Shown here piece by piece: positions 7,479 through 15,974 of a stretch of 64,000 nt of DNA (its first letter is position 1; each line of letters begins with the position of its first letter). The translations under genes and the position numbers were made by a program. Source of the stretch: Escherichia phage UoN_LDJ77_1. The stretch lies in sequence record OK570375; one strand, given 5' to 3'. The notes under the pieces are model-generated. The model was not told where the DNA came from. It was given only the letters and a program-made list of their open reading frames with translations, and ran no database searches.

Positions 7479-9066
<1,588 letters not shown>

Positions 9067-9093
9067 AATAAAATGGGCCTTGCGGCCCACTCC

Positions 9094-9596
9094 TTAAAAA
9101 TATTTTTTAAAACTCATCATAACTTTATCATCAACATCATTATCAATCTGTGCAACAAGATAAGATGACAGTTCTACTTCTTGTGGCGCGGATTGAACAT
9201 TATCAGAATTAAGGTATTCACGAATCCAAGGATATGGATGTTTAACCGGAGCATCGGTAATTGGGCATGGAAGACCGCACTGTTTCATACGAGATACAGT
9301 TAAATAATCAATAAAGCTCCACATGCTATTTGTATTTAATCCAGGAACATCGCCGTCTTTAAATAAATGAATTGCCCAATCTTTTTCTTGGCGGTTAACT
9401 TCCATGAAAATATCAACTGCTTCTTGTTCACACTCTTGAGCAATTTTAACCCATTCATCGCCATCAGTGCCAAGTTGAAGTTGACGAATAATATATTGGG
9501 TGCCTTTAAGGTGAAGCTGCTCATCACGTGCAATGAACTTCATAATCTTGGCATTACCTTCCATGATTTCCATATTCTTGTGGAAGTTAAAGGTAC
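9094..9596 (-). CDS. nrdB: ribonucleotide reductase small subunit NrdB, exon 2
   Basis: C-terminal R2 homology (MEGNAKIM..., SSYLVAQID); predicted 3' splice site after intron-terminal G at 9597. Confidence 0.8.
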
Positions 9597-9732
9597 CGTT
9601 ATGTTCGATTGAGCTCGCTAATTCTCAACCCGTTCTCTTATGAACTGCTACATATTACTATGCAGACCAGACTATATCACAATCCCAGAGGGATTCTCCC
9701 CATTTCGAGTCGCTTGACCCTACGTCCGAAGA

Positions 9733-10542
9733 CTAGTCGTTGAACCTTGCTTTACAATTGTCGCCGTGCCATCGTTTATATGTTGATGGTGATAAATCTT
9801 TCTTATCACAATATGGACAATTCAATTGAATTCTATTTGGATTTAATTTACATCTGTCATTATGTTTTAGATAAAATCCAGGACCTTTACCAATGTGACC
9901 GCAGAAATCACATGTGATTTCTTTTTGTGCAGGATGGGTCCCGTTCTTAACCATTTCTAATGTTTTTGCTGATGTTCTTTTCTTATGGTCTTCTGACAAG
10001 AAATGATGTGAACCGTCATTTACCCGTTTTGATTGAGTTTCTGACTGCATTTTACCACCGCAAAATACATGAGTACCTTCTTTTATAGCTGCAATATTGC
10101 GTTCTTTAACTTTTGCAATATGCTCAGCTTGTTGAAAATTATGTATACCTAATGCAACTCTATTTAAATTAGATTTACGCTGTATTTCACCGTCTAAAAG
10201 ATGAAATGTACCATTTTCTATCTTAGATTTAATAGAGGCAATATTTTTAGCTCGTACTTCAGGGATATTAAAAATCTGGATTTCTCTAGATTTTGCGGCT
10301 TTAGAAGCTAATTCAGAAATTTCTTCAGGAGAATATTTCATTCTAAGCTTTATAGCATGACAAGCCTGGTAATCTTTTTGAGCTAAATGTATATCATAAT
10401 GTTCCTGTATAGAAAGGCACATCAAATTATCTAAATCATTATTTTCACGGTTACCGTCTTTATGATGGATTTCGTATGTTCTTCCATCAGAATCTTTAGG
10501 TATAGGTCCGTTAGCATCTATCCAAATTTTTCTATAGTTCAA
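9733..10542 (-). CDS. intron-encoded HNH homing endonuclease, I-TevIII-like, full length (269 aa)
   Basis: HNH motif EIHHKDGNRENNDLDNLMCL...EH and C-terminal Cys-rich zinc fingers; inside nrdB intron. Confidence 0.85.
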   Translation of the reverse strand: MNYRKIWIDANGPIPKDSDGRTYEIHHKDGNRENNDLDNLMCLSIQEHYDIHLAQKDYQACHAIKLRMKYSPEEISELASKAAKSREIQIFNIPEVRAKNIASIKSKIENGTFHLLDGEIQRKSNLNRVALGIHNFQQAEHIAKVKERNIAAIKEGTHVFCGGKMQSETQSKRVNDGSHHFLSEDHKKRTSAKTLEMVKNGTHPAQKEITCDFCGHIGKGPGFYLKHNDRCKLNPNRIQLNCPYCDKKDLSPSTYKRWHGDNCKARFND

Positions 10543-10569
10543 TTGTGCATCCTCTTAAAAGTATAATCA

Positions 10570-10577
10570 TATTTATA
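10570..10577 (-). promoter_or_regulatory. candidate T4-type late promoter (TATAAATA) upstream of intron ORF
   Basis: Exact TATAAATA on minus strand 27 nt upstream of the endonuclease ATG. Confidence 0.4.
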
Positions 10578-10687
10578 TTATACTAATTAAAGGTGCAAGC
10601 AAAACCTTGGCTGCTAGTTTTCCTATAAAGGACTTTCCAGCAATTAAAGGAGTTTTCGATAAACGTTACCGTTTAAAGGCGCATTTT

Positions 10688-11363
10688 ACGCAAAAGATAC
10701 ATAAAAACGAATAGCTTCTAAGGCATTAATAACGTGTAAACAGAGGTAAAGAGACTTCATTAAAGCACGTTTAGCTTCGGCTTCTTGTTTAATAGCTCGG
10801 TTTAAACGAAAGTCGGCATCAGGAGATTCTTTAGCTAGTTCTACAAATTCTTTAGCATTTTCCCATTCACGGGTTTTAACCAAGACATCATCATAATAGC
10901 GACCGATAGATTCAGCACGTTTCATGATAGCTTCATCTAATACAATCTCATCAAATACCTTCGATGGATCAGTATAAAGATTTCGCATGATATGAGTATA
11001 TGAACGACTGTGAATAGTTTCACTAAAAGTCCATGTAGCAACCCATGTATCAAGGCTTGGGTCTGAAATTAATGACATAAGTACAGCAGACGGCGCACGG
11101 CCCTGAATGCTATCCAAAAGTGATTGATACTTCAGGTTGTTAGTAAAAATATTTTGCTGATACTGAGGAAGCTTATTAAACTGTGCAGCATCCATCATTA
11201 AGTTTACTTCTTCGGGACGCCAGAAAAATGATAAGGACTTCTCTGTAAGTTCTTCAAATACTCGATGCCGTTGAATATCATAACGCGCAATACCAAGACC
11301 TGAACCAAAAAACATAGGTTCTTTTAAAACATCAACTGGATTTGTATTAAAAACTGTGCTCAT
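10688..11363 (-). CDS. nrdB: ribonucleotide reductase small subunit NrdB, exon 1
   Basis: N-terminal R2 homology; track ORF reads through 5' splice site into an intron stop. Confidence 0.8.
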
Positions 11364-11414
11364 AAATTTTCCGCTTAGTTAATAGTTGGTGACTCGTCCA
11401 TGAGTCAAATTATA

Positions 11415-12404
11415 TCATAATTTACAGGATGAACAATCTTCAGCTTTTGGAGTTTCTATTTCATAATCATCAGTACCAGAACCATCACGGGTATTATGAT
11501 AATAGAAATTTTTTCCGCCAAAATACCAAAAATACAAAAGGTCATCAATCATTATTGACATTGGAACCTTGCCTTTAGGGAAGATTTGGGGGTCATAATA
11601 TGTATTCGCTGAAGCTGATTGACACACCCATTTCAGCATAATAGCTACCTGCGTAAGATAAGGTTTATTACCTTTCTTAGCTAATTTCCATGTATAGTCG
11701 TAAAGGTCTATGTTATGCTCAATATTGGGCACGACCTGATTAAAGGAGCCCTCTTTTGATTCTTTAACAGAGACTGGTCCACGTGGAGGCTCGATACCGT
11801 TTGTACTGTTAGAAACTTGGGAAGATGACTCACATGGCATAAGTGCTGATAATGTGCTATTACGGATGCCAAAGAGCTTAAGGTCTTCCCGCAGCGACGA
11901 CCAGTCACAAACGTATTTTGGAGCTGCGATTTGGTCAATCTTTTTATTGTACCAGTCGATAGGTAATTCGCCTCGAGACCAACGAGTGTCTGAATAATAT
12001 TCGCAAGGTCCTTTTTCTTTGGCGAGCTTAATGGATGCTTTAATGAGTCCATACTGTAATCTCTCAAATAGTTCATGTGTTAAATCGTTAGCATCTTCAT
12101 AAGAAGCAAAGTTACTTGCCAGCCAAGCTGCATAGTTAGTAACACCTACACCGAGGTTACGACGCTTTTTAGCTTTTTCTGCTTCAGGAACCGGATATCC
12201 TTGGTAATCCAAAAGATTATCAAGAGCACGAACTTGAACTTCTGCTAATTCATTAATTTTATCTTGGTCTTGCCAGTCAAAATTATCTAGTACGAATGCA
12301 GAGAGAGTACAAAGCCCCACTTCTCCCTTGTTTTCAATAACTTTTATTGTAGTATACTCATCATCTTCGTAAAATTCATCTACAAATTCATAATCAATAT
12401 TCAT
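11415..12404 (-). CDS. nrdA: ribonucleotide reductase large subunit, C-terminal piece (NrdA-b, 329 aa) with its own start
   Basis: Aligns to NrdA from GLCTLSAF onward (NSTLSALMP, C-terminal CxxC tail); ATG overlaps stop of upstream HNH gene. Confidence 0.8.
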   Translation of the reverse strand: MNIDYEFVDEFYEDDEYTTIKVIENKGEVGLCTLSAFVLDNFDWQDQDKINELAEVQVRALDNLLDYQGYPVPEAEKAKKRRNLGVGVTNYAAWLASNFASYEDANDLTHELFERLQYGLIKASIKLAKEKGPCEYYSDTRWSRGELPIDWYNKKIDQIAAPKYVCDWSSLREDLKLFGIRNSTLSALMPCESSSQVSNSTNGIEPPRGPVSVKESKEGSFNQVVPNIEHNIDLYDYTWKLAKKGNKPYLTQVAIMLKWVCQSASANTYYDPQIFPKGKVPMSIMIDDLLYFWYFGGKNFYYHNTRDGSGTDDYEIETPKAEDCSSCKL

Positions 12405-13104
12405 TTAATTCTTTTACCTTTTTTCTAGTAATTCCTAAAGTTTTAGATGCTCGATGTATTGATTGATATTCTATACCGTTTATTTTTACAGCAATTAAGT
12501 TATGGGGTTTTAATCCCTTTGGATGAGGTTTACTGACGAAAACTAAATTATCAAGTTCTGAAATCTTATCCAATTTCTTACACTTAAATCCTTTGTGATG
12601 CGACCGTTTACCTTTACAAACGGCTGACATTGCAGATGGATTTAAATTATGCTCTTTACAAAATTCGTTAAGACCTCGATGAATTTCCTCATGACCATCC
12701 GGAAATGTAAACACCCAAGATGTTTGAAGTCGAGATTTAACTTCTGGAGACATAGGAATACCTTTGTTCCAAGCTGGTTTTCCTTTATTATTTTCAGATA
12801 CAGAAATAGCCAATTTTCTTCTAAGCCACCCATGGCGTTTATTGGTGTTCTTTCGTTCAATATTATCTTCAGAATAAACACACATCATATTAGCGGCAAA
12901 TATCAATTTATGATTATTTGGATATATCTTTACTAATAATTGATGAGCTATGTAATGCTCTTCTGGTGTCAAATCTACCAGGTTTTCCTTTGTATCAGAA
13001 CCACCAATACACAGAGGTATAATATGGTGTGATTCGGTATAGCAATCTAATTTTCTATTCTTAGCTTTAGAAATAAGGTTATTGTAAATTTTAAAATAAT
13101 CCAT
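12394..13104 (-). CDS. free-standing HNH homing endonuclease (236 aa, MobE-like) inserted within nrdA
   Basis: HNH motif ESHHIIPLCIGGSDTKENLVDLTPEEH; own SD AAGAGGAAAA; no group I core elements nearby. Confidence 0.8.
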   Translation of the reverse strand: MDYFKIYNNLISKAKNRKLDCYTESHHIIPLCIGGSDTKENLVDLTPEEHYIAHQLLVKIYPNNHKLIFAANMMCVYSEDNIERKNTNKRHGWLRRKLAISVSENNKGKPAWNKGIPMSPEVKSRLQTSWVFTFPDGHEEIHRGLNEFCKEHNLNPSAMSAVCKGKRSHHKGFKCKKLDKISELDNLVFVSKPHPKGLKPHNLIAVKINGIEYQSIHRASKTLGITRKKVKELNEY

Positions 13105-13149
13105 AACTTTTCCTCTTGTTATGGATTATTTATTAACGGTCTGTGTACT

Positions 13150-14583
13150 TTATTTGCTTTGAATTATACCGCCAGGATTAGCTTCATAAAACTTAGCTAC
13201 ATCCGACTTCTTAATTTTGATTAAACGAGTTTGTTGGCTATTCACATCATTTGTTGGAATAGCAATTTCACAACATAAGTTACTCTGACGAATAGGTGCC
13301 TTTTCACGAATAAACGGAGTATAGTTATTCGTATTATCAATGAACTGTACATAAATCCTTGCTGTTCCTGAACGTTCAGTCATGAGCAATTCAAATAGTT
13401 CACGGGCTTTAATACGCTTTTTACGAATATTAGGGTCTTTTTCTGCTGCTTCGTATAATTCACGGAAACGGTCTTGGTCTTTAAAATAAGAATAATAAAG
13501 CTCGCCACCCATTTCATGCGGACTGAACAAAGTAATGTAATCGTTCTTTCCGAATCGTTCCATCATCAAATCATTCAGCTGAACACCATAATCCATATGA
13601 CGGATACGGTTTTCTTCTACGCCTTTGTTATTTTTCAAAACGAGAAGATTTTCAACTTCCAAATGCCAAATAGGATAATAAGCAGTAGCAGCGCCGCCAC
13701 GAATTCCGCCCTGTGAGCATGATTTAACAGCAGTCTGAAAATGTTTCCAAAAAGGAATAACCCCAGTATGGCGTACTTCACCCATGCCAATCTTAGAACC
13801 TTCGGCACGAATCATACCAACGTTAATACCAATTCCAGCGCGTTTAGAGATATATTCAACAATTGAAGCGGAAGCCTTATTGATAGACTTCAGCGAATCA
13901 CCTGCCTCAATAACAACACATGAACTAAACTGTCGAGTCGGAGTACGACAACCAGCCATAATAGGAGTTGGCAGTGAAATCTGTCGAGTAGATACTGCTT
14001 CATAAAAACGGATAACATGTTTTAATCTATCAACAGGTTCATCTTGATGCAATGCCATTCCAATAGCCATAAATGCAAACTGTGGAGTTTCATAAATTTG
14101 ACCAGTGGTTTTATCTTTAACTAGATATTTTTCTTTTAATTGCATCGCCCCAGAATAAGTAAATTCCATATCCCGTTCATGCTTAATTTTTGATTCTAAA
14201 AATGTAATTTCTTCTGCTGAATATTTTGACAATAATTCAGGGTCATATTTACCTTCATTTACACAGTAAGAAATATGGTCAATAAATGAACGTGGTTCAT
14301 ACTGCCCATAAACATGCTTACGAAGAGCGAACATTAAACAGCGTGCAGCTACATATTGATAATCAGGCTCTTCAACCGAAATAGAATTCGCAGCAGCCTT
14401 AATGACAATAGTCTGAATGTCATCAGTTGTCATTCCATCACGGAGATATGATTTAATATTTTCATATAATTCATAAGGATCTACTGATGTTCCCTCAGAT
14501 GCCCAAGATAAAACTTTAATAATTTTTTGCGGGTCAAAGCTCTGAGAAACACCACTACTTTTGATAACATTAATTAATTGCAT
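13150..14583 (-). CDS. nrdA: ribonucleotide reductase large subunit, N-terminal piece (NrdA-a, 477 aa)
   Basis: NrdA homology through active-site SNLCCEIAIPTNDVN, then a 29-aa non-homologous tail and stop. Confidence 0.85.
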   Translation of the reverse strand: MQLINVIKSSGVSQSFDPQKIIKVLSWASEGTSVDPYELYENIKSYLRDGMTTDDIQTIVIKAAANSISVEEPDYQYVAARCLMFALRKHVYGQYEPRSFIDHISYCVNEGKYDPELLSKYSAEEITFLESKIKHERDMEFTYSGAMQLKEKYLVKDKTTGQIYETPQFAFMAIGMALHQDEPVDRLKHVIRFYEAVSTRQISLPTPIMAGCRTPTRQFSSCVVIEAGDSLKSINKASASIVEYISKRAGIGINVGMIRAEGSKIGMGEVRHTGVIPFWKHFQTAVKSCSQGGIRGGAATAYYPIWHLEVENLLVLKNNKGVEENRIRHMDYGVQLNDLMMERFGKNDYITLFSPHEMGGELYYSYFKDQDRFRELYEAAEKDPNIRKKRIKARELFELLMTERSGTARIYVQFIDNTNNYTPFIREKAPIRQSNLCCEIAIPTNDVNSQQTRLIKIKKSDVAKFYEANPGGIIQSK

Positions 14584-14900: not shown

Positions 14901-15117
14901 ATTGTTTTTCCGTTAAAACAGTAATATCGTAGTAACAGTCAGAAGAAGTTTTAACTGTGGAAATTTTATTATCAAAATACTCACGAGTCATTTTATGAGT
15001 ATAGTATTTTTTACCATAAATGATAATAGGCTGTTCTGGTCCTGGAACTTCTAACTCGCTTGGGTTAGGAAGTGTAAAAAGAACAACGCCAGAAGTATCT
15101 TTAAATCGTAAAATCAT
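14854..15117 (-). CDS. hypothetical protein (87 aa)
   Basis: ORF track; overlap with td stop. Confidence 0.5.
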
Positions 15118-15974
15118 ATTGCCATTTTCCCTTTAATTGCTGGATGCGATTCATAATTTTCAAGGATAAAATCTTTCGGTTTCATGTATTCAGTTAACCA
15201 GTAAAGCTGTGTTTCGGTGTCACAATTTCCAAACTCTATAGGCCAATCAATTTTAAGTTCACACAGTTCTTTAGGCTCACGACGTAAAATTTCTTTACAT
15301 TGTTCTACGTGATTCATATAGATATGAGTATTACCACCAGAAAATATCAAATCTCCTGGGATAAGATTACACATCTTAGCTACAATATGAACTAGTGCAG
15401 CATATGATGCAATATTAAATGGAAGACCGAGGAAAACATCTACTGATCGTTGATACCACTGAAGGTCAAGGTATCCATTACGAACATTAAATTGATAAAA
15501 CATATGACAAGGCGGTAATGCCATCTGCTTGAGTTCAGCTGGATTCCATGCTGAAACAATTTGACGCCTATCATTTGGCAGTTTTTTAATACGATCAATA
15601 ACTTCTATAATTTGGTCTACACCACCAAAATCACGCCACTGTTTTCCATAAATTGGACCAAGTTCACCACTATGGTATCCTAAATCTTTTGCTTGATTTT
15701 CGTAATTTTCATCCCAGACTGTTTTGCCTTGGATTAACGAATCATGCTGAATTAATCGTAAATCATTGACATTTGTGCTTCCTGATAAGAACCACAATAA
15801 CTCAGAAATGCAAGCTTTCCAGGCGAGCTTTTTAGTTGTTACTGCAGGAAAACCTTTGGTTAAATCCCAACGCAATTTAGTACCGAACAAAGCAATTGTT
15901 CCTGTGCCTGTTCGGTCATCAGTTTCATAACCATTTTCAAAAATGTCTTTAATTAAATCTTGGTATTGTTTCAT
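15114..15974 (-). CDS. td: thymidylate synthase, intronless (286 aa)
   Basis: Continuous ORF with TS motifs (PPCH active-site Cys region); no intervening sequence. Confidence 0.95.

Follow-up and report, generated by a model that had tools for sequence, protein, structure and literature searches.

Group I introns interrupt several genes of nucleotide metabolism in phage T4, and that of nrdB is a well-known one: its self-splicing was reportedly first demonstrated by Gott et al. in 1986 and Sjoberg et al. in 1986, and the nrdB intron of phage RB3 is said to have been described by Eddy and Gold in 1991. The T4 intron is described as self-splicing (PMC2790892), and the mobility of the RB3 intron was shown in 2007 by Robbins et al. 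(PMC1865063), the year from which biochemical characterization of its enzyme also dates. The RB3 intron codes for the homing endonuclease I-TevIII, which cuts intronless nrdB as a dimer at positions -14/-16, leaving 2-nt 3′ overhangs; homing of this intron, ascribed to I-TevIII, exceeded that of a T4-intron donor control more than 40-fold (PMC1865063). The truncated nrdB intron of T4 is mobilized only in trans, by MobE (PMC2790892).

We compared with these systems a 64,000-nt stretch of DNA from Escherichia phage UoN_LDJ77_1 (OK570375; hereinafter the window), for which an initial annotation had proposed a group I intron in nrdB at 9597-10687. Both boundaries turned out to be exact, and the strand, which had been left unstated, is the minus strand. 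Judging by sequence comparison, this segment is almost certainly a full-length RB3-type T-even phage nrdB group I intron with an intact I-TevIII homing endonuclease gene (Table 1). It occupies the same site of the same gene as the RB3 nrdB intron (KM606994), has the same length of 1091 nt, and is identical to it at 1089 of these positions; both introns code for a 269-aa enzyme with an HNH domain and a double zinc finger, and they have promoter, hairpin, and Shine-Dalgarno sequence in common. The RB3 record is itself annotated with an nrdB join and I-TevIII. From RB3 to the window, one of the two substitutions (GAC to TAC) results in D23Y in I-TevIII, and the other leaves Cys263 unchanged (TGC to TGT). 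An nrdB intron with I-TevIII of this kind is already known from the literature, and the window copy departs from the published RB3 element solely in a single amino-acid change, conservative in appearance, and in its genomic neighborhood. The T4 intron shares the insertion site and the core, and its 5′ 209 nt are identical to those of the window copy save for a 1-nt indel. Applying the window splice junctions to T4T gives a 598-nt intron, which aligns to the window copy outside a 491-nt internal segment (window intron positions 210-700) that T4 lacks. This agrees with the statement in the initial annotation that T4 bears a truncated version: absence of the segment eliminates the HNH domain and causes a frameshift, leaving the T4 copy immobile alone and dependent on MobE (PMC2790892). 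The two copies further differ by about 10 point differences and two 1-nt indels in all, including a compensatory change in P9.

Table 1. Features of the nrdB intron locus in window coordinates; helices are as proposed from the model alignment and folding.
Feature	Position	Strand	Details
nrdB exon 1	10688..11363	-	codons 1-225 and first base of codon 226; 3′ end ...UUUGCGU
nrdB group I intron	9597..10687	-	1091 nt; 5′ end AAAAUGCGCC, 3′ end ...CAUAACG (terminal G)
nrdB exon 2	9094..9596	-	5′ end GUACCUUUAAC
Ribozyme core, 5′ half	10597..10687	-	CM transfer, MFE fold, motif positions
Ribozyme core, 3′ half	9597..9752	-	CM alignments, hairpin folds
P1			exon GCGU plus A1 with U5-C9 (intron positions); U.G at splice site
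Internal guide UGCGC	10683..10679	-	
P2 hairpin	10674..10661	-	intron 14-27; GUAA loop
P3	10652..10647 with 9701..9696	-	intron 36-41 with 987-992
P4 (P/Q elements)	10642..10637 with 10617..10612	-	intron 46-51 with 71-76
P5 hairpin	10632..10621	-	intron 56-67
P6	10602..10597 with 9752..9747	-	intron 86-91 with 936-941; least certain helix
P7 (R/S elements)	9738..9734 with 9674..9670	-	intron 950-954 with 1014-1018
P7.1	9733..9724	-	intron 955-964
P7.2	9720..9707	-	intron 968-981
P8	9694..9682	-	intron 994-1006
P9	9665..9648	-	intron 1023-1040
P9.1	9645..9632	-	intron 1043-1056
P9.2	9630..9607	-	intron 1058-1081
Terminal G	9597	-	intron 1091
I-TevIII gene	9733..10542	-	269 aa, TTG start; N-terminal HNH domain, two C-terminal CX2CX12-13HX3C zinc fingers
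T4 late-promoter consensus TATAAATA	10570..10577	-	exactly 27 nt between motif and I-TevIII TTG
RBS-masking hairpin in P6 loop	10547..10596	-	Shine-Dalgarno AAGAGGA (10556..10550) paired to upstream CACCUUUA; TATAAATA in loop
Operator-like sequence TTGCTTGCACCTTTAATTAG	10583..10602	-	intron 86-105; 15/20 identical to intronless homing site TTGCGT/GTACCTTTAACTTC (slash, insertion site)

The interrupted gene is seen as two minus-strand ORFs, the first (11363..10686) terminating in ...AIRFYVSFA and the second (9573..9094) opening at an in-frame ATG and containing MEIMEGNAK... At the DNA level, exon 1 terminates in ...TCTTTTGCGT and exon 2 begins with GTACCTTTAAC; the intervening sequence has AAAATGCGCC as its first letters and CATAACG as its last. 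In-silico splicing of 10687..9597 yields a 392-aa NrdB reading ...RFYVSFACTFNFHKNMEIMEGN..., which is colinear with, and equal in length to, the NrdB proteins of the intronless phages RB32 and T2, just as expected from the earlier proposal that splicing restores the conserved R2 region. The junction is unambiguous because the flanking bases differ at both splice sites (intron first base A versus exon 2 first base G; intron last base G versus exon 1 last base T), which rules out a sliding or alternative junction. The proposed P1 pairing between exon GCGU and intron GCGC and the proposed terminal G were likewise recovered: intron G6-C9 is the partner of exon GCGU, U(-1).G6 being a wobble, and the minimum-free-energy fold of the ORF-deleted intron contains the same pairing. 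Position -2 of exon 1 (window 10689, minus strand) is polymorphic among these phages, reading GCGT/GT (slash at the junction) in the intron-containing window, RB3, and T4 alleles, and GCAT/GT in the intronless RB32 and T2; the G is required for the third P1 pair. The difference could stem from co-conversion with the intron or represent a variant of the homing site.

The P, Q, R, and S elements that the initial annotation had placed on either side of the ORF were located as AAUUGCUGGAAA and CUAGCAGCC 5′ of it and GUUCAACGACUAG and GAUAUAGUCU 3′ of it; they align respectively to P4, P4′, P7, and P7′ of the group I model, and the conserved P3-P8 core is present. The covariance-model scan that had been suggested as a check gave a divided outcome. 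The window copy itself fell below threshold: with gathering thresholds, the Rfam models recovered no match anywhere in the window, and a permissive RF00028 scan of 9400..10900 scored 29.8 bits (E=2.6e-5; gathering score 50 bits) at 9888..9648 on the minus strand, corresponding to the 3′ core. In this permissive alignment R, P7.1/P7.2, P3′, P8, S, and P9 are convincing, and the 5′ half of the model is forced onto ORF sequence; the miss is probably due to the ~800-nt ORF splitting the core. In contrast, a natural 304-nt ORF-less derivative of the intron from Escherichia phage vB_EcoM_CE1 (ON229909) matched RF00028 end to end with 68.6 bits (cut-off 50, E=2.3e-17). The CE1 intron has the same site and core as the window copy and is identical to it over the 5′ 117 nt and the 3′ 157 nt; the I-TevIII ORF has been eliminated through a deletion bounded by two CAATTG repeats (intron positions 143 and 928). 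Membership of the window intron in the group I model would be conferred by homology transfer from this derivative and not directly. The CE1 intron (L006 1212..1515, from ON229909) itself illustrates the stage of the homing cycle at which the endonuclease is lost.

The helix map was obtained by transferring the covariance-model alignment of the CE1 derivative to the window copy and was checked with the minimum-free-energy fold of the ORF-deleted window intron and with folds of the individual hairpins. P7.1 and P7.2 are additional hairpins of a kind that typifies subgroup IA. Outside the ORF, the window and T4 introns differ at seven positions, three of which are in P9: from window to T4, an A-U pair becomes G-C by changes on both sides (compensatory) and a G.U pair becomes G-C by a one-sided change. 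The other four are in the P5 loop, the P8 loop, the joining segment before P9, and the 3′ tail. The proposed P6 is the least secure of the helices because a T4 difference at intron position 938, within the ORF, would break one of its pairs. The intron copies compared are 94-100% identical, which is too little variation for formal covariation testing. Taking splicing over from the published work on T4, the nrdB pre-mRNA would be made from the minus strand and its intron would adopt a group I core of the subgroup IA type. P6 would accommodate the ~800-nt ORF as a loop, and the 3′ end of the ORF would extend into P6′/P7. Guanosine-initiated self-excision would then take two transesterification steps, the earlier one at the P1 U.G pair and the later one after the terminal G, and ligation of ...UUUGCGU to GUACC... 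would restore the R2 subunit.

A megablast search of 50,697 phage records with 9400..10900 as query retrieved 644 matching records, 83 of which contain the full-length intron with its ORF (≥80% of the query); all of these are T4-like (Tequatrovirus and relatives), RB3 included. Records at 27% query coverage (e.g., RB32, T2, and many others) represent intronless alleles. Many GenBank records, among them the closest relatives of the window, present nrdB as two 'beta subunit' genes together with a 'homing endonuclease' or 'hypothetical protein', and in several of them exon 2 is given as a separate 'beta subunit' CDS starting from the internal ATG of MEIMEGN. The CE1 record labels nrdB exon 2 'major capsid protein'. 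Routine annotation and the standard Rfam scan both miss this intron; the main worth of the case lies in annotation practice, with little of it as discovery, and its lesson is that ORF-bearing group I introns call for an ORF-aware search.

The proposal of an intact 269-aa HNH ORF was confirmed by profile searches, in which residues 4-48 matched Pfam HNH_3 (E=6e-13) and residues 1-269 covered the 269-position profile of PHROG 12324 ('intron-like DNA endonuclease'; E=1.9e-193); the C-terminal 97 residues additionally match the PHROG representing the truncated protein of T4. A search of solved structures with the I-TevIII sequence gave no match at E≤0.01. Residues 74-114 (10201..10323, minus strand) marginally matched Pfam FlgM (anti-sigma-28; 26.2 bits versus a cut-off of 25, E=9e-6), which we judged to be probably a chance match to a helical, low-complexity, lysine/serine-rich segment; it corresponds to the linker between the HNH and DNA-binding domains. 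All four catalytic residues, H26, H27, N39, and H48, are present; alanine mutants of these abolish cleavage and retain binding (PMC1865063). The zinc fingers CDFCGHIGKGPGFYLKHNDRC and CPYCDKKDLSPSTYKRWHGDNC keep all eight ligands, including C211, C214, C242, and C245, the cysteines required for binding (PMC1865063). The earliest in-frame ATG of the ORF is M41, and a start there would cost most of the HNH motif; the Shine-Dalgarno sequence AAGAGGA precedes the TTG at 10542 with a 7-nt spacing, and this TTG is therefore the functional start, consistent with the published residue numbering. At its other end, the ORF overlaps P6′ and the R element GUUCAACGACUAG of P7 by its final ~7 codons and its stop.

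The window I-TevIII is identical to that of RB3 at 268 of 269 residues, and the single difference, D23Y, is three positions before the catalytic H26/H27. Y23 is a widespread allele: in the 61-nt region around codon 23, at least 46 of the 77 phage records covering it are identical to the window. Y23 may even be the commoner form in sequenced phages and might differ from the D23 enzyme of RB3 in activity or stability, an idea that we put forward as speculative and rather unlikely; the D23 enzyme is notably feeble and labile in vitro, and if the idea were true, the textbook picture of a weak I-TevIII could reflect an atypical D23 allele. A contrary reading, which we consider quite improbable, is that the intron splices and its Y23 enzyme is inactive or too weak for homing, the element persisting passively or by co-conversion from neighboring endonucleases. 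D23Y sets this copy apart from the only biochemically characterized enzyme at a site near catalytic residues, even that RB3 enzyme is weak (~2 U/µg, Kd ~0.8 µM; PMC1865063), the ORF starts with TTG, and the defective T4 copy demonstrates movement in trans by MobE (PMC2790892). However, the ORF is full-length with every mutationally defined residue intact, and an inactive Y23 is unlikely because the allele is frequent, the identity of so many records around codon 23 arguing against a recent disabling mutation. Moreover, the known trans-helper is absent from between nrdA and nrdB: the spacer between the 3′ nrdA piece and nrdB (11364..11414) measures 51 nt and has no free-standing mobE, as in RB32 and AV121, whereas T4 and RB3 have the gene at this place. 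The window intron would thus depend on the I-TevIII that it encodes itself.

We favor this self-reliant I-TevIII, in which, following the RB3 enzyme, the dimer would make a double-strand cut in intronless nrdB at -14/-16 with 2-nt 3′ overhangs, and repair templated by the intron-containing genome would copy the intron in. The suggestion in the initial annotation that this might be an active homing element is thus in line with experiment on the nearly identical RB3 element (PMC1865063). Endonuclease activity of the Y23 form itself is a prediction, as D23Y parts this allele from the characterized one.

In T4, the intron ORFs possess an internal late promoter and a hairpin masking the ribosome-binding site (PMC2988022, citing Gott et al. 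1988), and primer extension has located middle and late promoters for the three ORFs (PMC2988022, ref. 48 = Gott et al. 1988). The late-promoter motif TATAAATA, noted earlier as lying 27 nt 5′ of the ORF and as suggesting late expression, is indeed at that distance from the TTG and is looped out by a hairpin in which the Shine-Dalgarno sequence is buried, as in the published T4 arrangement. By number alone the motif does not exceed chance expectation in the window (8 copies versus 9.45 expected), so that its weight as a candidate late promoter derives from its position and from the literature. The hairpin that encloses it is stable (dG -14.9 kcal/mol, z -3.94), with none of 200 shuffles being as stable, and RNAs starting just downstream of TATAAATA have no such hairpin and fold with only -1.4 kcal/mol. 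That TATAAATA is a chance octamer, with I-TevIII expressed only from read-through nrdB transcripts, would be compatible with these motif counts; nevertheless, we regard it as very unlikely, given that the hairpin around the motif sequesters the Shine-Dalgarno sequence with its 5′ arm and has the motif in its loop, that intron positions 65-209, comprising promoter, hairpin, and Shine-Dalgarno sequence, are identical in the window and T4, and that T4 intron-ORF promoters of these classes have been located by primer extension. Late-promoter use, by analogy with T4, would then operate as follows: in early and middle read-through transcripts the ribosome-binding site of I-TevIII would be buried in the hairpin; late in infection, transcription would start just downstream of TATAAATA in the hairpin loop; and the resulting RNA, devoid of the 5′ arm, would be translated from the TTG.

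An autorepression operator has been proposed for I-TevIII and is regarded as putative (PMC2988022). The operator-like sequence in the window resembles the homing site to a degree reached by 13 of 2000 shuffles and 10 of 984 window tiles. A scan of 9000..11500 for sigma-70 promoters and terminators gave counts indistinguishable from those of shuffles. Three short plus-strand ORFs within the intron (44, 56, and 42 aa) were set aside as unsupported, the neighboring rnlA, denA, nrdB, nrdA, and td all being on the minus strand.

Downstream of nrdB, the window has denA (endonuclease II; 8656..9090, minus strand), a member of the GIY-YIG family (Pfam E=5.4e-6) that is denA in the RB3 annotation too, followed by rnlA (RNA ligase 1; 7479..8639), in the ordinary T4 gene order. 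On the other side, nrdA (11415..14583, minus strand) is split in two by a gene (13104..12394) coding for a 236-aa HNH endonuclease whose N-terminal 127 aa show 46% identity to T4 MobE. NrdA-N (14583..13150, minus strand; 477 aa) ends in ...NLCCEIAIPTNDVNS followed by a 28-aa basic tail (pI 10.0), and NrdA-C (12404..11415, minus strand; 329 aa), the first 11 nt of whose gene overlap the HNH gene, has a 26-aa acidic head (pI 4.05) before GEVGLCTLSAF; intact NrdA relatives read NDVNS-PDAEI-GLCTLSAF across the split site. A group I intron as the cause of this interruption was dismissed, there being no group I signal at that place. The arrangement is common to 34 T4-like phage records, including vB_EcoM_112 and fPS-2.

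That nrdB too is an unspliced gene in pieces, giving two polypeptides (225 aa, and 159 aa from MEIMEGN), may be brought to mind by the truly split and intron-free nrdA next door, by the in-frame ATG ORF at 9573..9094, and by the many records with two 'beta subunit' CDSs, but it is extremely improbable, since the ORF sits within a complete group I core, the same junctions yield the 598-nt intron of T4, the seven conserved residues CTFNFHK between the end of exon 1 and the ATG would be lost, and the nrdB pieces have no compensating tails like those on the nrdA pieces.

The split nrdA, which is probably of more interest than the nrdB intron, is closely paralleled by the mobE 'genes-in-pieces' ribonucleotide reductase (RNR) of Aeromonas phage Aeh1, with which it has in common a split between the active-site cysteines and the oppositely charged tails of the pieces; in Aeh1 these tails are essential for activity (PMC3045599), and a preprint mentions such insertions, as unpublished, in 'Aeh1 and several others' (10.1101/2022.08.31.505936). 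RB3 differs in having mobE between nrdA and nrdB, the window having instead a MobE-like gene inside nrdA. Unlike in T4, td of the window (15974..15114, minus strand) is an uninterrupted 286-aa ORF with no td group I intron or I-TevI. The nrdB intron of the window is similar to the td and nrdD introns of T4, with their I-TevI and I-TevII, in being a group I intron in a nucleotide-metabolism gene of the same phage group; the ORFs of those introns have middle or late promoters and hairpins masking their ribosome-binding sites, and their enzymes, like I-TevIII, cleave away from the insertion site (PMC2988022). They differ in the enzyme itself, the td and nrdD endonucleases being GIY-YIG monomers and I-TevIII an HNH dimer (PMC1865063).
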